From a virus, in the UHGV virus genome UHGV-1383708: DNA of 41,056 nt; one strand, given 5' to 3'. Shown here one piece after another: positions 186-9,927 of this stretch. The notes beneath the pieces are model-generated. The model was not told the DNA's origin. It saw only the letters and a list, made by a program, of their open reading frames with translations, and made no database searches. The translations under genes and the position numbers were made by a program. The first letter of the stretch is position 1. The number at the start of each line of letters is the position of its first letter.

Positions 186-668
186 CTATCTGGTCAGGGT
201 GTCGTACTGTTTTTCACAGACTCTTCCGGCTTCGGCTGCCCGGTCAGCATACTCTGCCAGTTGTCTGTTTCTCTCGAGAGATTTACTGAGCACGTCGGCA
301 AGCAAAACTCCGGTGTCTGCGGCTGACGTCCCAGCGCCGACAATGGCGTTATAGTGCCTGAGCTGCTCACGGATGGCAACGAGCTGTTGCTGCAACCGGC
401 CAGCGCGAGCGGCAGCATCAAGAGCATCATTGCGCGCCTGGTCGATCCTCTGCTGCGCTTCACGTTCATTGATCGATTTCTCCTGTTCGTAGTGCTGACG
501 AACTTTGTCTTCTTCGGCTTTGCGGTCTTCTTCCGCCTGAGCATACCCGGCATCGTACTGGCGACTGCCGTGTGCATTCCAGGCGACAACTCCTGATATG
601 ACCAGAACAGCAAGCATCGCCATGATAACCAACTGTTTCCAGTATGCTTTTGCGAATGCCCAGATCAT
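186..668 (-). CDS. Rz-like inner-membrane spanin
   Basis: 160 aa; N-terminal [18 protein letters not shown] then charged coiled-coil; follows endolysin. Confidence 0.6.
194..430 (-). CDS. Rz1-like outer-membrane lipoprotein spanin, embedded in Rz in another frame
   Basis: [13 protein letters not shown] lipobox then Pro/Ser-rich sequence; fully inside the Rz gene. Confidence 0.5.
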   Translation of the reverse strand: MMLLMLPLALAGCSNSSLPSVSSSGTITPLSALGRQPQTPEFCLPTCSVNLSRETDNWQSMLTGQPKPEESVKNSTTP

Positions 669-1294
669 ACCGCCAGCACCTTACTGGCAGTGATGTATCG
701 CGCGCGCCGGTCGTCGATGCCGTTCCTGCCACCATTGATAATCAGAGTTACACGTACAATATCTCCGGTATACTTCATGCAGCCTTTGCTGGAGAAGAAC
801 CAGGCCGCGCTACGAGCCGCGTATTCGTCCTGTGCCAGCAGTTCAGGATTCTCCAGCAGGTCAACTTTCAGACCGTTTCCGCAGTCACGATAGTTATTCA
901 AACCGGTAATCTGGATAAGCCCGCGCCCACGGTAATTCCAGCCATCGCCGGGAGCATTGTTACCCATGCGTTTGCTGTATACCAGATTTGCGATCGCGCG
1001 CTGGCGCTCAAGTGGCAATGGTGGTTCACCAACGCGGCGCCCCAGTGCATTAGCCTGTCCCTGGGTGAGGCGTCCAGTCCGGACAAAGCTCACCAGTCCG
1101 GTAACGCTGTAGTTGAAATTCTCCTGCAACCTGGTGAACCCCCCAGACTCATGCCCAACTTGAGCAATAAACATTGCCTGATCTTCTGCCTTGCTGATAC
1201 CAAACTCTTTCATCGCAGAAGTTATATGCGAGAACCAGCGAGCGGCCAGCGCCTCGCTAATACCAGCAGCTCGCTGGAATTGTTTAATCTCCAT
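665..1294 (-). CDS. Endolysin, glycoside hydrolase family 19-like
   Basis: 209 aa from MEIKQF; motifs QVGHESGGF and [22 protein letters not shown]. Confidence 0.75.
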
Positions 1295-1592
1295 GTTTAG
1301 ACCTCGATATTTTGAAAATCTGAACAACGTTACCGCGTGTTTTAATAACCGCGGCAAGCATGACAGCGTTGATAATGACCTCAGATAAATCCACAGCCAT
1401 TGGCGTGCGTAACCAGATTGCATAGACGACACGAACAGGAATACTGGCCGCAGCAACAATAAGGAAATAAGCAAGCCACCCTCCCCATCTTCGATGTTGA
1501 GAGCCGTTACGCCGGAATGTGACAACGCGAATTGCTATGCCAGTACAAATAACTGCATTGGTGATAAGCAAAAAAAACTCATGCGTTACCAT
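1284..1592 (-). CDS. Putative second lysis membrane protein (holin/antiholin-like)
   Basis: 102 aa; hydrophobic helices; overlaps both neighbours. Confidence 0.45.
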
Positions 1593-1983
1593 CGTCTTTT
1601 CTCCCCGGAATTAACTCGCGTGGATTATCGGAACGGTGATAGAGCCATATACCAATACGCACAGCAACAATTGCTGACACGAATGCGCCAGCTGAGAAAA
1701 CAATCCCTTTTTCAAAAGAGTCCTGCGTGATGGTAGGGATCAGGCTGGCTATGCCGATAAGAATTGATGCTGCTGGTTTATAAAAAAGAAGGCCGCAGAG
1801 AAAGCTAAGCATCGACAAGAGTACACGACGACGAATAGGATACTCTACCGCAGAGGTAACAAAAATTACCGCCCCAGCCAAAGCCCCCAAAGCAACCTCA
1901 GGAGGAACTCCTGCTATCACCGCCGCCAGAGAACTCATGCTAAGCCACTGATTTAAAGTTTCACTGGTTAGTTGAGCTGACAT
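1579..1983 (-). CDS. Putative holin (multi-TM membrane protein)
   Basis: About 134 aa from MSAQLTSE; several hydrophobic helices; first gene of lysis cassette. Confidence 0.5.
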   Translation of the reverse strand: MSAQLTSETLNQWLSMSSLAAVIAGVPPEVALGALAGAVIFVTSAVEYPIRRRVLLSMLSFLCGLLFYKPAASILIGIASLIPTITQDSFEKGIVFSAGAFVSAIVAVRIGIWLYHRSDNPRELIPGRKDDGNA

Positions 1984-2205
1984 GTTTTCCACCGTTTATA
2001 TGCATAACTACCTCCTGAATAGTAAAGGCATTACGCATGATAAACCATTTATGGTTTTTTGTTACCCATGCATTGTCAATCCCCTTCCTTTCATGTCGAT
2101 AATAAGGCTTGCCTTTTACATAACTCTGAAGAGATTGCAGTACAGAAATGATTTAAAATATAGAGGCTTAGTTGAATTCCGCGCCATTTGATGGCGCGGT
2201 AGCAG

Positions 2206-2520
2206 TCAAATATAGAAATAAACACCAAAACAAACAGTAACAGGAACAACAAAGTCAAACAGGCTTCCAACATCCCATACGCGCGGATCAAAACCGCCCC
2301 ACCACGGCATATTCATACGCTTGCCATGCCCGAACATTTCAATCCAGCGATATTCTGCCTGGGTGTGTTCACGCGCAATGAAGAACGTACAACCAGCTAT
2401 CGCTCCGTAAGCCCAGTTTCCGGTAAAAAGGCCAATCAGTATCTGTGCGGCCACAGCACAAAGCGCATGAAGGAAAGGTGTTATATCCATTGCAATAAAA
2501 TGTCCGGTTCTATATTCCAT
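2206..2520 (-). CDS. Small polytopic membrane protein (104 aa), function unknown
   Basis: Two or three predicted TM segments; between tailspike and lysis genes. Confidence 0.5.
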   Translation of the reverse strand: MEYRTGHFIAMDITPFLHALCAVAAQILIGLFTGNWAYGAIAGCTFFIAREHTQAEYRWIEMFGHGKRMNMPWWGGFDPRVWDVGSLFDFVVPVTVCFGVYFYI

Positions 2521-2530
2521 GCATTTAATC

Positions 2531-4831
2531 CTACTTCGTTAATATTTTAATCAAATCAATATTGCTTCCTTCTGATATTTCAGAAGGAACACTACCTGAT
2601 AACTTTATTGCATTAGATGAAATTCCTGAAACATCAGAAATCATATTTTTTGCCCCGCTAGTATATGCAACCTTAAAGTCATCATAAGGACCAGAATATG
2701 AAATTTCATCCTGGTTACGCACATATATAGTATTCCCGGACACCGATTTAACAACGTATCTATTTCTTAATATATTAACCTTAACATCAGATGCATCTTT
2801 TACATAACAGGTAACACCTGATGCTATATTTTCCATTTTGACATCAAGTGATGAATTAAACATCACAGCACCAGACCTGTGGATATTATGATCATCCATA
2901 TTTCTTCGAGGATACGCAGAACTATCCTTATAATATCTTCCGGTAAATCTGATATATTTGAAGGTAATTCCAGATGTATTACCACCCGACAGAATGACAA
3001 CCCTTATTGATTTTACTCCTCCTTTGTCGGTTATCCTAAACTTTGCATTACCGATGTTAGACTGGGTAGTAAAACGACTGTTTTCATCATCCCATGAAGC
3101 CCCTGGAAAACCAATCCCTTCAGGCTCATTTGTAATAACACTGCCATTCTCATCAATTCCATAAACCCTTATGCGGAATGCGCTGACATCAGAAGTAAAT
3201 GCAAACACATCGCCATTCCTGACGCTTATATCACCTGATTCCCAAATTGTCCTGAAGTTACGTCCAATAGCAAAACTACCATTAACAAGATGAATTAAAT
3301 TTCGCACACTTTTTACATCTGTAACATAATCAGGTGTATCTGAACTTCCCATATTAACGCTTGATAAAAATGGCGTTTTCTCACTCACTGAAAAAAGCGA
3401 CACTTCATTAGTTAGTTCTTCCTGAATATGATATACAGCATTTCCATTACCATTATCAGTGACAGTTACAAGATTGTTTGGGTTATATGGTTCATTGGTA
3501 TATGCAGAAAAGCTAAGCCATGATGCCTGAACAGAATTATTCCACGTATAACTACCAAAATTAATTCTTTGTGTGTCATCTGGGTTGTCTGGTCTGCGCT
3601 CAAAACGGAGTCCGTAAAAATGATTATTATTACCACGCTGAATGTCAATAACCCCAGTATTCTCCATCGTTCCACCAAAAAACTTGTTGTGATTATGTGA
3701 ATACGGATTATCAGCAATAATCACATTATTTGTCCTGTTTAGGTAAAACTTGTTTTCGTTTATCCAACCTCTAACTACACCAAGAAAATGAATTGTATCG
3801 ACCTTTTTCAGGTTAAAGGTTGAGTAGGCTATAGAATAATCTGTTTCATATACTGAATCATCAGAGTTTGCATATAACTGTAAGTAGTCGCAACGCTCAA
3901 TGTTAATATGCTGCCCTTTTGCCCCGATAATACGAATATCCGGTGTCGTTTCAGATGAAATACCAGAATTTCTGATAATCGTTCCGAAGTTTTGTCTTGG
4001 GTTGTTAGGGTTTGATGCATTCCCGCCAAGCAATACCCCTATCCCTGAGTGGGATATGGTAAAAACAGCATTGGTCATTTCGAGGCTGACATTACGAAGA
4101 TTTAATGTCTCCGTAATAATAAAATTACCTTCCGCTCGTAATGTTCTGGATGATTCTCGTGCATATTCTGCAGCCAGAATCAATGCAGATGTATCATCTG
4201 TTATACCATCGCCTTTTGCCCCAAAATCGCGAACACTAACGGTGTCTCTCATCTTATCCTGGAACGTTCGGTATACTGCTCCAGAACCATACTGAATAAA
4301 CCAACCAAAACCACCAATAACTCCGGCGATTGCAGCATCGACATAATTACGCATTGAGCGATTATTTACAGCGTCCTGCTCAAGTGATGGATCGGCAAGG
4401 TTAGATATTCTGTTTTGCTTTGCATCGTAATATTTTGCAAGCAAAGATGGTTTCATCAATGCACGTCTGAACCACCCAAAACATCGCTGGATCAGCATCG
4501 TCAGGTAGTCAAATGCATCCTCATGAACTTCGGGGAAAAATTTTCCCTGATTGCGAAGATCAGTCTCCTGCACCACATCAAGCACACGCTCTATCGTGAT
4601 TCGCCAGCCAGCAGCAAGCGGCGACGGAAGAACCACTGCACCGCCACTATAAGTTCCCGCCCCTGTTACCGTATAACCAGCATCCAGCACTAGTTTTGTA
4701 ACGTTACCGTTAAGGTCAGACACCTGAACAACCAGGTCGGATTTTTTGAAAATACGGAAGGTATACGGAAATGATGTCGTAACGCCGTTACCTGTGTATT
4801 CGTTGTGGTCAACTTCGGTTGAGACCGTCAT
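2531..4831 (-). CDS. Tailspike / receptor-binding protein
   Basis: 766 aa; N-terminus MTVSTEVDHNEYTGNGVTTSFPYTFRIFKKSDLVVQV recalled as conserved particle-binding domain; AT-rich Asn/Ser/Gly-rich C-terminal part; GGAGA RBS. Confidence 0.8.
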   Translation of the reverse strand: MTVSTEVDHNEYTGNGVTTSFPYTFRIFKKSDLVVQVSDLNGNVTKLVLDAGYTVTGAGTYSGGAVVLPSPLAAGWRITIERVLDVVQETDLRNQGKFFPEVHEDAFDYLTMLIQRCFGWFRRALMKPSLLAKYYDAKQNRISNLADPSLEQDAVNNRSMRNYVDAAIAGVIGGFGWFIQYGSGAVYRTFQDKMRDTVSVRDFGAKGDGITDDTSALILAAEYARESSRTLRAEGNFIITETLNLRNVSLEMTNAVFTISHSGIGVLLGGNASNPNNPRQNFGTIIRNSGISSETTPDIRIIGAKGQHINIERCDYLQLYANSDDSVYETDYSIAYSTFNLKKVDTIHFLGVVRGWINENKFYLNRTNNVIIADNPYSHNHNKFFGGTMENTGVIDIQRGNNNHFYGLRFERRPDNPDDTQRINFGSYTWNNSVQASWLSFSAYTNEPYNPNNLVTVTDNGNGNAVYHIQEELTNEVSLFSVSEKTPFLSSVNMGSSDTPDYVTDVKSVRNLIHLVNGSFAIGRNFRTIWESGDISVRNGDVFAFTSDVSAFRIRVYGIDENGSVITNEPEGIGFPGASWDDENSRFTTQSNIGNAKFRITDKGGVKSIRVVILSGGNTSGITFKYIRFTGRYYKDSSAYPRRNMDDHNIHRSGAVMFNSSLDVKMENIASGVTCYVKDASDVKVNILRNRYVVKSVSGNTIYVRNQDEISYSGPYDDFKVAYTSGAKNMISDVSGISSNAIKLSGSVPSEISEGSNIDLIKILTK

Positions 4832-4935
4832 GTTAAATCTCCAGATAGTCGCAGCACCCGTTGCGCCGCATATCTGGTTATTCTATTACCCAAAAAACCA
4901 TATATGGATAGAAAGACTGTGAATATGAATAGATA

Positions 4936-4950
4936 TTACCTTTCAGGTAA
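4936..4950. promoter_or_regulatory. Operator palindrome TTACC-TTTCA-GGTAA
   Basis: Perfect palindrome between tailspike start (4831) and small gene (5028). Confidence 0.6.
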
Positions 4951-4987
4951 TTTGCAAAACGTGCTGGATAGCAAACAAATTATTTGC

Positions 4988-5007
4988 TACTGTATAAATA
5001 TACAGTT
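4988..5007. promoter_or_regulatory. LexA (SOS) box
   Basis: TACTGTATAAATATACAGTT, CTGT-N8-ACAG with AT-rich core, close to E. coli consensus. Confidence 0.65.
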
Positions 5008-5027
5008 ATTGCATGGAGAAGATTAAG

Positions 5028-5285
5028 ATGCAGCAGTATCACTATCCACTGGAAGAGGGATTTACCGAAAGGATTCACACGCCGGGAGGCGTCAGGTCAC
5101 TGGTGGAGGGATCGCACTTGATGAAATTACTCCGGGATCTCGATAAGGATGGATTTAATGTCGATGGCCCACTTGCCGAACTGACTGCACTGATTAACTA
5201 CGTCACCAGCTCACAGATGTCTATGCAGGATCTGCAAACACATCTCGACTATTGTGCCGAACAATTACGAAAACAAACCAGATAA
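5028..5285 (+). CDS. Small protein homologous to the antirepressor shared C-terminal domain; candidate SOS-inducible antirepressor
   Basis: 86 aa; GGAGA RBS; GGVRSLVEGSHLMKLLRDLDKDGFNVDGPLAELTAL parallels SGVLGLTENSLLMNLLNQLQEDGHDVSGAAAELTTM; LexA box 20 nt upstream. Confidence 0.55.
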   Translation: MQQYHYPLEEGFTERIHTPGGVRSLVEGSHLMKLLRDLDKDGFNVDGPLAELTALINYVTSSQMSMQDLQTHLDYCAEQLRKQTR

Positions 5286-5316
5286 GTTTTGAAATTACCA
5301 ATAGGAGTGCTTATAT

Positions 5317-5331
5317 TTACCTTTTCGGTAA
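5317..5331. promoter_or_regulatory. Operator palindrome TTACC-TTTTC-GGTAA
   Basis: Perfect palindrome right after TTGAAA-N17-TTATAT promoter-like hexamers; nested in larger inverted repeat AGGAGTGC/GCACTCCT. Confidence 0.6.
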
Positions 5332-5425
5332 ATTTACATTGCACTCCTCTTGTGCCATAGTAATCGGGCACTGGCAAAATCCAGTGCCGGGATTGGTCTC
5401 CCGGATTACTACAGAGGCACATATG

Positions 5426-5445
5426 CCGCATAAGCGGTTTTTTTA
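5426..5445 (+). terminator. Intrinsic terminator downstream of small LexA-box gene
   Basis: CCGC-ataa-GCGG hairpin followed by TTTTTTT. Confidence 0.5.
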
Positions 5446-5598
5446 TGTGTAAAGCGCACCTATTCTATGGTGGGCTGTGTGGGGGCACCGAAAGGTGCGC
5501 CGGGTTCCTTTGTAGCCGGTAAGACCAACTCTGCACAGTTCACCACCATCTGATTGGTCTCAGCGGTGGTGATTAACCTAACTACAAAGGTGATCGCT

Positions 5599-6291
5599 AT
5601 GAATACCAAACCTTCCATCTTTTCCTTTGAGTCATCCTGCCAGATCCGTATGTTCATGATTGACGGAGAACCTTGGTTTGTCACCAAAGATGTGTGCAAT
5701 GCTTTGAATATTGATGTTACACAAGCGAGAAAACTTGATAAAAAAGGCTGGAACAAAAAGGGGCTGTATTCAATACAGACCCCTGGTGGAATACAAGAAC
5801 TATCCATCGTTTCAGAATCAGGTCTCTACATCCTTATTCTGCGTTGCAAAGAGGCAATGACTGAGGGAACGAGAGCATTCAGATTTCTTGAATGGGTTAC
5901 AGGTGAGGTTCTTCCTCAGATCCGCCGCACCGGAAGTTACATTAAAAACTCGCTCCCGCAGGAAGAACGCATAAAGATGGTTGCCGACCAGGTAGCCAAC
6001 GCCACAGCATCAGCAGTGATGCAGGCAATGAAGGTAGAGAACAAAACCTACAGCGCCCCACTGAAGCCCGGCTACCGCAGCCTGATTCATTCGCCGTCTG
6101 GTGTTCTCGGCCTGACGGAGAACTCACTGCTGATGAATCTGCTGAACCAGTTACAGGAAGACGGGCACGATGTATCGGGCGCGGCGGCGGAGCTGACCAC
6201 CATGTTCTGCTACATCGTCGGTGTGAGCAAATGCCTGCGTGATATCCAGACGCACGCGGAGTACATCAACGACAAAGCAGGGTTCTTCTGA
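5599..6291 (+). CDS. Bro-N domain antirepressor with shared C-terminal domain
   Basis: 230 aa; N-terminus IRMFMIDGEPWFVTKDVCNALNI typical of Bro-N; last 77 aa near-identical to antirepressor 7543-8481. Confidence 0.7.
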   Translation: MNTKPSIFSFESSCQIRMFMIDGEPWFVTKDVCNALNIDVTQARKLDKKGWNKKGLYSIQTPGGIQELSIVSESGLYILILRCKEAMTEGTRAFRFLEWVTGEVLPQIRRTGSYIKNSLPQEERIKMVADQVANATASAVMQAMKVENKTYSAPLKPGYRSLIHSPSGVLGLTENSLLMNLLNQLQEDGHDVSGAAAELTTMFCYIVGVSKCLRDIQTHAEYINDKAGFF

Positions 6292-6376
6292 CGGGCGGCG
6301 GCACAGGGATGTGCCTACAATTATCAATAATTGTTTACACTCGTTGCAGTTAAAAGCATTATACTCATGTTTAAAA

Positions 6377-6391
6377 TTACCCGATTGGTAA
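6377..6391. promoter_or_regulatory. Operator palindrome TTACC-CGATT-GGTAA
   Basis: Perfect palindrome just downstream of a TATACT -10-like hexamer. Confidence 0.6.
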
Positions 6392-6412
6392 AGTCGATTG
6401 GTTGAGGTTCAT

Positions 6413-6739
6413 ATGAGCAGAAGATATGTCAAGGAGCTGGCTATAGAGTCTGGCACCCCTTTGGGTATCGTTCCTGGCTCCAACTATGCCAAGGCTTTAA
6501 ACCGAGACTCTGTCGTCAAAGTTATATCAAGAGACATGAATATGGTCGGAGACGATCTCAGACGGTCAGAAAATCGTGTTTATGCTGAATATATAGTAAA
6601 GAACGGAAAAAAAATTGCAGCGCCTGCTGGCGGAAAATGGGCAATAGTGACAGGGAAAAACTCAAATGCAAGAGGAAAACCAGAAGCTAAAGGAATGTCC
6701 TTCGACAAATATGCAAAAATCTATTGGGCAACCAAGTGA
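6413..6739 (+). CDS. Hypothetical basic protein (108 aa), first gene of cargo cassette
   Basis: GAGGT RBS; operator palindrome 22 nt upstream; overlaps next gene in another frame. Confidence 0.45.
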   Translation: MSRRYVKELAIESGTPLGIVPGSNYAKALNRDSVVKVISRDMNMVGDDLRRSENRVYAEYIVKNGKKIAAPAGGKWAIVTGKNSNARGKPEAKGMSFDKYAKIYWATK

Positions 6740-7214
6740 TAACGAAGAAACTGAGTTCGAGGAAGTTGAGGAAGGGCTAAGTAACGAGATCATTCAACAC
6801 CCAGATGCCTTCACAAGAGTTCTTGATCGCCCTGAAATTCAGGAGATAGTTGTCGCTCACCATGCGTTTCAGGGTCCGCTTCCTCCCCCCTATCTGCTTC
6901 GCGGGTATCAGGATATTTTACCTGATGCCCCCGAACGCATCTTCCAGCTGACGGAGAAGGAGTTTGCTCACCGCCAGAAAATGGAGGAAAAGGCACTTGA
7001 CGGGGCTATTAATAGAGATAAACGTGGGCAGTGGTTTGGCCTGAGTGCAACTATTTTTACAGTAGCTTGTGCAACATTATTAGGTTTAACAGGTCATGAA
7101 GTTCTAGCTGGCACAGTGATCGGTACAGTTGTTGCAGTGGCTGGTATTTTCGTTCTTAGACAAAAACCAAGCATCAAGAAGAAATCTGAAGACAACAAAC
7201 CTGAAGAAAAGTAA
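6711..7214 (+). CDS. Acidic N-terminal / two-TM C-terminal protein, DUF2335-like (tentative)
   Basis: LPPPYLLRGYQDILPDAPERIFQLTEKEFAHRQ then hydrophobic hairpin WFGLSATIFTVACATLLGL...VIGTVVAVAGIFVL; start may be 6666. Confidence 0.5.
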   Translation: MQKSIGQPSDNEETEFEEVEEGLSNEIIQHPDAFTRVLDRPEIQEIVVAHHAFQGPLPPPYLLRGYQDILPDAPERIFQLTEKEFAHRQKMEEKALDGAINRDKRGQWFGLSATIFTVACATLLGLTGHEVLAGTVIGTVVAVAGIFVLRQKPSIKKKSEDNKPEEK

Positions 7215-7236
7215 GCCCGCGCTGCGGGCTTTTTTG
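7214..7236 (+). terminator. Intrinsic terminator after cargo gene pair
   Basis: AGCCCGC-gct-GCGGGCT hairpin followed by TTTTT. Confidence 0.7.
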
Positions 7237-7307
7237 TGGACGAAACAAAAGTCAGTGCTACACTCATTGACGCCACATTGAGGTGGCTTATAGATGGAAA
7301 TTTCACA

Positions 7308-7469
7308 ATGAAAAAAGCATTTGCTGCACTGTTCGTTTTGTTGTCTCTGGTAGCTTCAACTCAGGCCTTTGCCGGTCGTTGTCAGCACGACAGCGATACT
7401 GCCGCTGACGGCTCCCGCTGCGGTGGGCGTTCTGCGGATTCCCGCCCTGGCGGCGGTGGCATTCGTTAA
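7308..7469 (+). CDS. Candidate secreted micro-protein (53 aa) with signal peptide
   Basis: MKKAFAALFVLLSLVASTQAFA then Gly/Arg/Asp-rich 31-aa tail with two Cys; no clear RBS. Confidence 0.35.
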   Translation: MKKAFAALFVLLSLVASTQAFAGRCQHDSDTAADGSRCGGRSADSRPGGGGIR

Positions 7470-7475
7470 AAACAA

Positions 7476-7519
7476 GGCCGCGAAAGCGGCCTGTGACATG
7501 TCACGCTAGTTTCGTTTTG
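7476..7519. terminator. Bidirectional intrinsic terminator between convergent units
   Basis: GGCCGC-GAAA-GCGGCC hairpin with T-rich tracts on both sides. Confidence 0.55.
7493..7504. repeat. Perfect 12-bp palindrome GTGACATGTCAC (copy 1)
   Basis: Exact; immediately beside hairpin GGCCGC-gaaa-GCGGCC. Confidence 0.8.
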
Positions 7520-7542
7520 CACGTCCCTGTGCCGCCGTTCTG

Positions 7543-8481
7543 TCAGAAGAACCCTGCCTTGTCGTTGATGTATTCCGCGTGCGTCTGGATATCACGCAGG
7601 CATTTGCTCACACCGACGATGTAGCAGAACATGGTGGTCAGCTCCGCCGCCGCGCCCGATACATCGTGCCCGTCTTCCTGTAACTGGTTCAGCAGATTCA
7701 TCAGCAGTGAGTTCTCCGTCAGGCCGAGAACACCAGACGGCGAATGAATCAGGCTACGGTAGCCGGGCTTCAGTGGATAACCATAACATTTTGTCTGTGT
7801 TTTAATTGCCTCACGAAGCGCATCTAACATCTTGACTGCCACTTCATCATTCTCTGATGCAGATCCAGCAGGGAGATACTCCCCTTCAAGCGGAACCCGA
7901 GCAACAAGAGACAACGCTTCGGCAAATTGATCTTCACCAATTTCTTTGTACGAACAGCCAAAATGAGATTTCAGTGACGACCACATGGTGATCATCGCCT
8001 TAGCCTGTTTTTCTTTTGGCAGAGACTGACCGCGACTCATGACGAGTTGTTTAATGGCTTCCTGCTGTTCAGTTGTTATTTTACCCGGCAACGCCTTTTT
8101 AGCTTTGCGTGGGTTAACCACATGGCCTTTAGTCCAGTACTCGTAGAGCACATCGTCACACTCTTCCTGATACTGGATTACCTTGTCGCGGATTTCAGGG
8201 CGGACTTTGTTAGGGCTGATGCTGTTCAACCAAGCTGCCAATTTTCGTAAAGCCATACAAATCATGGCTTGCACCCCACCGGCAGAAGGTATGGTGATTT
8301 CCACCATACCCTTCGAGAAGCGTTGAGAAATCTTCTTATGTTGAGATTTCCAGTCTAGCCCCATTCCCTCAACGATAGGTTTCATTGGGGTATACGGTTC
8401 GCCGTTGTGATTGACAACATAAAGCTCTGCGCCGTGGAATGGCACGTTGATAGTAGATACTGCTGTTGCTATACTCGTCAT
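7543..8481 (-). CDS. Antirepressor (Ant-type N-terminal region plus shared C-terminal domain)
   Basis: 312 aa; downstream of arc-like gene as in P22 immI; last 77 aa near-identical to C-terminus of gene 5599-6291. Confidence 0.7.
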   Translation of the reverse strand: MTSIATAVSTINVPFHGAELYVVNHNGEPYTPMKPIVEGMGLDWKSQHKKISQRFSKGMVEITIPSAGGVQAMICMALRKLAAWLNSISPNKVRPEIRDKVIQYQEECDDVLYEYWTKGHVVNPRKAKKALPGKITTEQQEAIKQLVMSRGQSLPKEKQAKAMITMWSSLKSHFGCSYKEIGEDQFAEALSLVARVPLEGEYLPAGSASENDEVAVKMLDALREAIKTQTKCYGYPLKPGYRSLIHSPSGVLGLTENSLLMNLLNQLQEDGHDVSGAAAELTTMFCYIVGVSKCLRDIQTHAEYINDKAGFF

Positions 8482-8553
8482 GTCGTTAATTCCTATACGT
8501 AGTTTTACGATACTGAAGCCCTGACGGTCTGGCCACCGTGGGGCTTCGCTGTT
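8482..8553 (+). ncRNA. Candidate sar-like antisense RNA covering the antirepressor translation start
   Basis: Plus-strand TTGATA-N17-TATACT promoter at 8447-8475 inside ant 5' end; hairpin GAAGCCC...GGGCTTC plus T-tract at 8515-8556. Confidence 0.4.
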
Positions 8554-8721
8554 TTATGCCACGCTATTCTTCTCACCAGTGAGTCCATACACTTTCCTCA
8601 GCTGATAGATAATCTCTGTATTGAACTTTCGGCATTCTTTTTCGCCATTTCTTTCAATAGCTAACTTCACATCGTCCGGAAAACGAACTCGTCGTTGACA
8701 CATCTCTTTTGCTTTTTGCAT
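8554..8721 (-). CDS. Arc-like ribbon-helix-helix repressor
   Basis: 55 aa; AAGGAG RBS; RRVRFPDDVKLAIERNGEKECRKFNTEIIYQL resembles P22 Arc; upstream of antirepressor. Confidence 0.7.
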   Translation of the reverse strand: MQKAKEMCQRRVRFPDDVKLAIERNGEKECRKFNTEIIYQLRKVYGLTGEKNSVA

Positions 8722-8841
8722 TTCATATCTCCTTAGCCCCACCGTGGGGCAAAATAATTGTCACACCGTGCGTCATTGATGTCAAGCACACGGTGAGGCA
8801 TACTTCAATCATTGCAAGTAACTCAATATTTGGTGAAGAAC

Positions 8842-9273
8842 ATGAGCAGAGAAGATCCACAACTAAGGATCAGACTTCCCGTCGAAGTAAAAGAAAAAAT
8901 AGAAATTTCTGCAAAAGCCAATAAGCGATCAATGAACGCTGAAATAGTACAACGTCTTGACACCAGTTTTCTGAAAGATATTCATGAAGATGACGTAATT
9001 TCTGCTTATGAAGCAAAAATCATTGCAAACAATGCACGACATGAAATATCAAATATTATTTTCAAAAGAACCTTTAATGAAATTAATAAGAAAATAACAC
9101 TTGGACATACAAGTTTTTATATAAACCTTAATGACCTTGAACTGGAATCACTTGCAGATAATGATTACCAGATCATCTTTGAAAAAACATTTAATAAGCT
9201 CAATGAACTAGGTTACATCATCTGTGAAAACTCATGGGATGCAGATGGTTTTGGAATTGAAATACCTGAATAG
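8842..9273 (+). CDS. Mnt-like ribbon-helix-helix repressor with ~100-aa C-terminal extension
   Basis: MSREDPQLRIRLPVEVKEKIEISAKANKRSMNAEIVQRL resembles P22 Mnt N-terminus; divergent from arc-like gene. Confidence 0.65.
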   Translation: MSREDPQLRIRLPVEVKEKIEISAKANKRSMNAEIVQRLDTSFLKDIHEDDVISAYEAKIIANNARHEISNIIFKRTFNEINKKITLGHTSFYINLNDLELESLADNDYQIIFEKTFNKLNELGYIICENSWDADGFGIEIPE

Positions 9274-9363
9274 GAAGAGCAAAAGGCGTGTACATATTAC
9301 ACGTCTTTAATACAATTGAAAAACGCCACATTACTGATGTATGTTACAACAAGGAGCGATATT

Positions 9364-9927
9364 TTGAAAACCATATCTATATTAAAGGTTGCATTAGGCG
9401 TCGCTATTATTTTGACTCTCTCAATATTGTTTTATTTTTACCACAAACAAACTGCTATTGCTCTTGATAGTCACGCGGCAAACTCATTTTTCTCAGAGTA
9501 CATAGTGCCGCTATCAGGAAGCGGTATAACAAATAAATATACTGACTATGACATCAAATATGGAATTGATGATGGGGAGACTATTGTATTACATGTAATC
9601 ATTAAAAACCTAATGACAGTAAATAAAAATACAGACTTCAACGATAAAAATACAATACATCACAACAACAGCAAAACATTAATTTCTTATAGTAGCAACA
9701 TCTATACGGATAAATACCTAAAATACATATCAGAAGATACAATAAAAGAAACCCGCGAAAAGTTAAAAAACATATATTGTGCATCCGGCAGTTTTCACAA
9801 ATTATCGCCGCAAGAGCGTTTATTCTACGAAGCAAGAAAACAACGTAAGTCAATAATATTACATTATTATGCTGATTCAGGGGAGACACTCATATTTAAT
9901 ATTGGGGTTTCCCCTGAATCATGCTAA
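9364..9927 (+). CDS. AT-rich membrane-anchored protein (about 188 aa), sieA-like position
   Basis: AAGGAG RBS 7 nt before TTG; N-terminal TM ILKVALGVAIILTLSILFYFY; markedly low GC; downstream of Mnt-like gene; start could instead be 9316 or 9337. Confidence 0.5.
   Translation: MKTISILKVALGVAIILTLSILFYFYHKQTAIALDSHAANSFFSEYIVPLSGSGITNKYTDYDIKYGIDDGETIVLHVIIKNLMTVNKNTDFNDKNTIHHNNSKTLISYSSNIYTDKYLKYISEDTIKETREKLKNIYCASGSFHKLSPQERLFYEARKQRKSIILHYYADSGETLIFNIGVSPESC

Follow-up and report, generated by a model that had tools for sequence, protein, structure and literature searches.

Morons are units of promoter, gene and terminator lodged between backbone genes; they were defined for lambdoid phages, and the classic ones are usually expressed in the lysogen. 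Here we describe a unit of related design in a viral genome of 41,056 nucleotides (UHGV-1383708; "the window" below means this whole stretch). It occupies about 920 bp of the plus strand (6316–7234) and contains a candidate promoter, an operator, two overlapping genes and a terminator; gene 1 encodes a small basic protein and gene 2 a membrane protein of the DUF2335 family. The unit resembles phage morons in having promoter-like sites and a terminator of its own, in being inserted between genes that are adjacent in relatives, in being exchanged as a block and in alternating with other cargo. It differs from them by a putative repressor operator, which predicts expression on derepression and not in the lysogen. 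From the extent of homology and from block replacement in a related phage, we conclude that the exchangeable unit consists of genes 1 and 2 only and is a horizontally mobile moron in a cargo slot of a Uetakevirus prophage.

Other described systems offer partial parallels. In phage P1, scattered C1 operators control accessory operons, among them the immI operon c4-icd-ant. The window appears to follow the same principle of one repressor motif over many promoters, yet by our comparison its repressor family and operator sequence differ from those of P1 and the cargo proteins seem unrelated. Lambda RexAB, an example of two-component abortive-infection or exclusion systems with an effector in the membrane, is produced alongside the repressor in the lysogen. 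The likeness there would lie in a cytoplasmic partner combined with a small inner-membrane protein from a prophage immunity region, but the libraries searched showed no relationship by sequence, and the cassette described here looks repressed in the lysogen. The pair also recalls type II toxin-antitoxin operons (for example yafNO, or the YafO_toxin-like pairs found in the same slot) in its small upstream gene overlapping a larger one, in the unequal evolution of the two genes and in their retention outside intact prophages. The layout is that of adjacent, co-oriented small genes, with an overlap of 25–77 nucleotides in 32 of 32 loci (from Escherichia coli, Klebsiella, Salmonella, Enterobacter, Leclercia and Rahnella), but neither partner matches a toxin or antitoxin family in Pfam, NCBIfam or PADLOC. 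No holin family match was obtained either, and the pair does not lie beside an endolysin gene.

DNA searches placed the window among the E. coli epsilon15/phiV10-like phages (genus Uetakevirus), the closest being EC.W1-9 (99.9% identity over 66% of the query), TL-2011b and vB_EcoP_ZX5; judging from these matches, we assign it to an E. coli Uetakevirus prophage. The cassette region is a variable stretch with the tailspike gene (2531–4831) on one side and the large virion genes (from 9939) on the other, both on the minus strand. Two comparisons fix the boundaries of the unit. An Enterobacter copy that is not part of a prophage (locus L009) is homologous to the window over exactly 6316–7234, from promoter through terminator. 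In the alignment with TL-2011b, the block from just past the 3′ flank of the upstream Bro-N antirepressor gene to the terminator is exchanged at identical boundaries for a pair of 59- and 181-amino-acid proteins, the larger of which matches YafO_toxin, while the terminator stem, the leader of the following gene (gene 3) and gene 3 itself are all unchanged across the swap. The intrinsic terminator that closes the cassette (plus strand, 7213–7237, with its stem at 7213–7231 followed by a T run; terminator scan) had already been noticed after gene 2 in an initial annotation made from the letters alone. It recurs as a GC hairpin and T run directly 3′ of the gene 2 stop codon in every context examined.

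The initial annotation had drawn the unit as a single three-gene cassette that included gene 3 (7308–7469, plus strand; phrog_14503, named "transmembrane anchored protein" by NCBI). Its description of gene 3 as an open reading frame for a 53-amino-acid signal-peptide protein holds: the signal peptide is a standard one (MKK, a hydrophobic core, then AFA before G) and leaves a mature part of 31 amino acids with two Cys. Its inclusion of gene 3 in the cassette does not. The gene 3 region occurs in 532 of 5426 complete E. coli genomes, and the whole pair interval, about eight times rarer, in 68. Prophages of Cronobacter, Klebsiella and Pectobacterium have gene 3 without the pair, 19 of the 32 pair loci lack gene 3, gene 3 keeps its position across exchanges of the cargo before it, and a terminator separates it from the pair. 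It is true that the trio recurs in the same order in a distant Rahnella lambdoid prophage and on an IMG/VR contig, where gene 1 is about 30% identical, as would be expected if all three genes, the 53-amino-acid peptide included, formed one functional module. We nevertheless consider such a module very unlikely. Gene 3 is a resident of the phage backbone, separate from the cassette.

The contents of the slot were surveyed by scanning IMG/VR with the gene 3 leader and extracting the interval back to the 3′ flank of the antirepressor (Ant) gene, which gave 90 IMG/VR contigs. Between these two constant boundaries the slot holds at least nine cargo alleles, that is, this cassette and at least eight others in related E. 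coli prophages. They comprise two YafO-like pairs, a DUF4760 membrane protein, several small membrane-protein pairs and others without assignment; the alternative cargo proteins tested against PADLOC gave no match. Most related prophages have the slot empty or filled with a different cargo. An exact copy of the operator motif TTACC-N5-GGTAA is present in eight of the nine alleles (in seven of the eight alternatives, where it lies against the −10 hexamer), and the ninth allele has it with one mismatch. A separate 4.8-kb contig (L111) encodes a 62-amino-acid glycine/alanine-rich membrane peptide (3034–3222) after a DUF2335 pair, and the homologue of this peptide is cargo allele 8 of the E. coli slot (L039). 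Because that homologue is itself a slot cargo, small modules appear to travel among one set of phage hotspots.

Genes 1 and 2 are an obligate pair: at every one of the 32 loci an intact gene 1 homologue overlaps the DUF2335 gene. The ratio of nonsynonymous to synonymous substitution rates (dN/dS) is 0.02–0.10 for gene 2 and 0.12–0.5 for gene 1, indicating purifying selection on both but of very different strength. In the same comparisons the DUF2335 protein is 62–92% identical and the gene 1 protein 25–67%. The hypothesis that one was dealing with a spurious open reading frame was rejected on conservation and dN/dS. At two distant DUF2335 loci (L146 and L147), too, a small gene precedes the DUF2335 gene, which it overlaps or abuts, and carries the same V-G-x-D/H-L/I-R motif.

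The pair is found beyond E. coli in Klebsiella and Salmonella prophages and at a Klebsiella locus that retains few phage genes (L007); a scan of species-representative genomes added one further carrier only, a Leclercia species. In Enterobacter (L009–L012, approximately 485–6565) the unit directly follows a full-length PD-Lambda-4A/Avs8A homologue and a PD-T4-5-like Abi_2 protein and precedes an IS3 element, with its operator intact; the arrangement is the same in four samples. Avs8A has been described elsewhere (bioRxiv 10.1101/2025.07.02.662641). In the Rahnella lambdoid prophage, the pair and gene 3 stand together just downstream of the Q antiterminator gene, a position that provides an independent pointer to expression in the lytic phase.

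The promoter region ties the cassette to the rest of the phage. A consensus scan of the plus strand gave a candidate sigma-70 promoter, TTAAAA-N16-TAAAAT (6350–6377), and an overlapping alternative, TTTACA-N17-CATTAT (6334–6362). The palindrome TTACCCGATTGGTAA (6377–6391; motif scan and conservation) is a perfect TTACC-N5-GGTAA, read as an operator from the start, and its distribution bears this out. The motif has 10 exact copies in the window, and 18 copies when one mismatch is allowed, against 0.72 expected. Copies at 34998, 35710 and 35772 fall in both early promoter regions flanking the repressor gene, and others stand in front of units at 4936 and 5317; the palindrome of the early promoters recurs at 6377, abutting a −10-like hexamer. 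It lies at most 200 nucleotides upstream of gene 1 in 31 of the 32 loci, with invariant half-sites and five variable central bases. The half-sites are constant across three unrelated promoter leaders, and the operator abuts the −10 hexamer or is within one base of it. In most promoter types (this cassette, other E. coli cargos, the Klebsiella and Salmonella copies and 5289–5317) the two share a base, the closing T of the hexamer being the opening T of the operator; the best −10-like hexamer of the Rahnella type ends one base further upstream. To judge from this pattern, the palindrome is a real, conserved operator that is used phage-wide.

Its presumed binder is the phage repressor (35068–35652, plus strand), a protein of 194 amino acids with two helix-turn-helix (HTH) domains (Pfam HTH_3) that is 100% identical to phiV10 p40. 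According to the paper on ZX5, phiV10 p40 and ZX5 ORF21 have identical sequences, and overexpression of ORF21 abolished lytic gene transcription; no operator was mapped there (PMC9782041). Since the operator is phage-wide and its copies flank a repressor of this tested type, binding of the repressor to the operator and repression of the cassette in the lysogen are plausible. Because the operator abuts the −10 hexamer and is common to the early promoters flanking the repressor gene, it is also reasonable to infer that the cassette is expressed on derepression and not in the stable lysogen. The initial annotation had proposed as much, with the cassette silent in the lysogen and switched on along with the antirepressors, and both the placement of the operator and the Q-adjacent lambdoid context favour that proposal.

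Gene 1 (6413–6739, plus strand; phrog_10654) is, as first annotated, an open reading frame for a basic protein of 108 amino acids (isoelectric point 10.0), soluble and preceded by a good Shine-Dalgarno sequence, GAGG. The protein has a conserved N-terminal motif and a C-terminal F-x-K-Y-A-x-L-Y-x-x-T-K. It belongs to no Pfam family: nine homologues compared with Pfam at E values up to 10 returned nothing. An exhaustive profile search delineated about eight credible clusters of small proteins as its family. Four large repetitive proteins (P0039, P0043, P0044 and P0047) were rejected as relatives, their scores being sums of low-complexity repeat matches. Gene callers have often overlooked gene 1. 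The gene contains an A8 run (approximately 6609–6616) and a GGGAAAAAC tract (6604–6660), and read-level public assemblies yield frameshifted, truncated or gene 1–gene 2 fused products (P0004, P0006) in which the shifts coincide with A-run homopolymers; these products could be sequencing errors or real slippage variants.

A very basic protein, encoded by a small first gene that overlaps the second as in type II toxin-antitoxin operons, might be expected to act as an antitoxin-like, DNA-binding autoregulator. If gene 1 recognised TTACC-N5-GGTAA, the phage repressor would not be the sole binder, or not the binder at all, and at L009 and L108, two contexts with no cognate phage in view, the operator has indeed travelled with the cassette and its half-sites are perfect. 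The operator also stands, however, at nine other sites of the phage and before seven alternative cargos that lack gene 1, and gene 1 evolves fast against invariant half-sites. Pfam searches gave no HTH, ribbon-helix-helix or other DNA-binding family match for it. We therefore think that an autoregulatory role of gene 1 at this operator is highly improbable, and retain the phage repressor as the presumed binder.

Gene 2 (6666–7214, plus strand, with an alternative start at 6711; phrog_3996) encodes an inner-membrane protein of 182 amino acids, as judged from its family match, alignment and hydropathy. It matches Pfam DUF2335 (PF10097) at residues 73–122 with 57.2 bits (cut-off 25), and its homologues bear the same precomputed domain. 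The first annotation had held that none of the proteins matches a nameable function; a named family has thus been added for gene 2, and no functional match was found. The description of an acidic protein overlapping gene 1 and ending in a membrane hairpin stands, the isoelectric point being 5.1 and two adjacent C-terminal hydrophobic helices lying at approximately residues 123–143 and 145–165. Its start at 6711 is less well placed: alleles of 78–83% identity retain the upstream Met and none has a Met aligned with 6711, while the most distant homologues start at the equivalent of 6711. An ATG start at 6666, giving a 74-nucleotide overlap with gene 1, appears the more likely of the two. The predicted layout runs from an acidic N-terminus through a GPLPPP motif and a long helix to the two-helix hairpin and a charged C-terminal tail; the N-terminus would be cytoplasmic, and the hairpin of two small-residue-rich helices would sit in the inner membrane. 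A literature search found no paper on the function of DUF2335. The "DUF2335 phospholipase" of papers on type VI secretion was considered and set aside, as it refers to effector toxin domains that do not fit the 50-residue membrane-protein model PF10097; that label probably denotes a different domain through a slip of naming.

These features suggest the following course of events. In the stable lysogen the phage repressor would bind the operator and keep the cassette off. Immediately after infection, or on induction, the cassette would come on together with the Bro-N antirepressor operon. Gene 2 would be the effector, disturbing the membrane or excluding competitors, and gene 1, fast-evolving, basic and cytoplasmic, would be its co-translated regulator, antidote or specificity partner; we infer that the two proteins are physical partners. 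The pair's target during derepression would be the host or a competing phage or element. Our preferred reading, tentative and held at somewhat less than even confidence, is that the pair is a derepression-activated, membrane-acting, two-component conflict module. Such a module might serve exclusion or abortive infection, as the initial annotation had suggested from the layout, or be a toxin–antidote pair. A function in conflict is suggested by the conflict-type cargos of the slot, by the Enterobacter defence island, by survival outside intact prophages and by the unequal rates of evolution of the two genes.

Several points weigh against this preference. Genes 1, 2 and 3 showed no homology to a known defence, toxin, holin, lysis, virion or exclusion protein in PADLOC-DB 2.0, Pfam, NCBIfam, PDB-sequence and fold searches; homology to virion or lysis proteins would have pointed elsewhere, and none appeared in these libraries. 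AlphaFold models of the gene 1 and gene 2 proteins were poor (pLDDT, the predicted local distance difference test, 59.5 and 54.5), and models of such low score lend no structural support. Viral structures searched by fold with the gene 2 model yielded no hit below E = 0.001, and PDB profile searches with the cassette proteins gave no match. Prophage defence genes are usually on in the lysogen, so a repressor-gated promoter is a poor fit to such a role and fits phage lytic growth equally well. Only one lineage showed the Avs8A/defence-island neighbourhood, which is absent from E. coli. The operator is kept at L009 and L108, where no cognate phage was seen, which a model with the repressor alone leaves unexplained. 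Finally, the literature search, which did not cover the epsilon15 genome paper, found no experiment that shows repressor binding to TTACC-N5-GGTAA or maps the motif.

The equal fit to lytic growth leads to the reading that the pair serves the phage's own lytic development, either in the timing of lysis, as a holin- or antiholin-like protein with its regulator, or in early remodelling of the membrane or host. A promoter that looks repressor-gated would give early lytic expression, in the lambdoid prophage the cassette has the Q antiterminator on one side and the lysis genes on the other, and a two-helix hairpin with a charged C-terminal tail would suit such a protein. Yet the cassette is dispensable, most related prophages having other cargo or none, and it persists outside intact prophages. 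The window moreover has a complete lysis cassette past the tailspike gene (two holins, an endolysin and an Rz-like gene, 186–1992), of which the holins and endolysin (665–1992) are on the opposite strand, some 4.4 kb from the pair, and gene 2 matches no holin family. A role in lytic development seems unlikely to us on balance.

A further possibility is that the pair is a factor of lysogenic conversion, with some expression in the lysogen, that alters the envelope, stress tolerance or virulence. A single operator may permit leaky expression, and the cassette, with its membrane protein, belongs to a moron region that adjoins the tailspike gene; the phiV10 gene oac for an O-antigen acetyltransferase, annotated with a function in superinfection immunity, lies on the far side of the tail fibre gene. 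The operator, however, overlaps the −10/+1 region, the proteins have no similarity to known conversion proteins, and ZX5 carries the pair, yet its lysogeny changed none of the host phenotypes tested (PMC9782041). Conversion is accordingly an explanation to which we give very little credence. The preferred reading of a conflict module also has a stronger form, in which the pair is a new two-component membrane conflict system that fires only on loss of the repressor, and the slot between the Bro-N antirepressor gene and gene 3 a library of at least nine induction-gated modules. These would shield an induced or freshly infected cell against competing phages or satellites, or else kill a cell in which development fails. 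We regard this stronger form as doubtful.

Of more use than the cassette alone is the cargo slot, with its apparent wiring to the repressor and its complement of at least nine alleles. If our interpretation is right, it would offer a first functional handle on the conserved DUF2335 membrane family and its unannotated partner. It would also describe a prophage slot defined by alternative cargos, nearly all with the same operator, whose expression is timed to induction or fresh infection, unlike most prophage defences described so far.

The cassette and gene 3 lie between two convergent antirepressor genes, as the initial annotation had stated: family matches identify a Bro-N antirepressor upstream (5599–6291, plus strand) and a P22_AR_N-type antirepressor downstream (7543–8481, minus strand). 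ZX5 ORF4, a close relative of the Bro-N antirepressor, was tested by overexpression (PMC9782041). The two Ant genes have a common C-terminal domain, which accounts for an inverted repeat of about 290 nucleotides and 93% identity. By repeat search, its left arm (6023–6314, plus strand) covers this domain of the Bro-N Ant gene and the 3′ flank, and its right arm (7519–7811, minus strand) the corresponding part of the P22-type Ant gene; the matching segments are 6023–6292 with 7542–7811 (270 nucleotides, 93%) and 6296–6314 with 7519–7537. The repeat itself was correctly described, but bracketing by it is not a property of the cassette: 62 of the 83 evaluable loci with the gene 3 leader have no downstream arm, and two of these 62 are among the five evaluable loci with the pair. 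For the cassette, the inverted repeats of the antirepressor genes are incidental. A bidirectional terminator had also been placed after gene 3; the hairpin there (7475–7492; terminator scan) scores on the minus strand only and is the terminator of the P22-type ant gene.

The description of the cassette as an accessory unit that has a promoter, operator and terminator to itself and sits in an immunity region is strengthened by the neighbouring C4, IsrK and sar RNAs and Arc/Mnt-like genes. Upstream of the Bro-N Ant gene, 5289–5598 contains a promoter-like site (5289–5317) and an operator copy (5317–5331). Rfam matches there are IsrK at 5368–5444 (74.7 bits), C4 antisense RNA at 5463–5550 (78.6 bits) and, below the 46.7-bit cut-off, a1/b1 targets of C4 RNA at 5355–5407 (39.9 bits). 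By analogy, this stretch has the layout of the phage P1 immI operon: in the operon next to the cassette, a C4-type antisense RNA and then an antirepressor gene lie behind an operator-bearing promoter, as they would in P1. On the other side, 8483–9273 is a P22-style immI with a sar antisense RNA (8483–8550, 44.8 bits), an Arc-like gene (8554–8742, minus strand) and a 143-amino-acid Arc-domain (Mnt-like) gene (8842–9273). With the P1-style immI adjoining the P22-style immI, two antirepressor circuits of different types stand back to back.

The antirepressor C-terminal domain is present in three copies in the window (5013–5285, 6023–6291 and 7543–7811). The first is a stand-alone protein of 90 amino acids (epsilon15 gp19-like, phrog_450), served by an operator of its own at 4936. 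E. coli EcPF40 (L017) has the stretch of Bro-N Ant gene, cargo and gene 3 reversed relative to the virion genes and beside a truncated antirepressor gene, which suggests inversions by recombination between antirepressor repeats.

Beyond the P22-style immI, 9316–9927 encodes a protein of 203 amino acids with an N-terminal hydrophobic segment (phrog_8033), which weakly resembles the TIR-like ThsB model of PADLOC (E = 0.006); from its sequence, this could be another accessory gene. Gene 3 is preceded by a hairpin, GCCAC-ATTGAG-GTGGC (7262–7285), and a similar one, GCCACA-TTTGTGGC, stands before the Rahnella gene 3 homologue (L108, approximately 4895–4915), though the surroundings have diverged. 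The hairpin may have a part in regulating the secreted-peptide gene.

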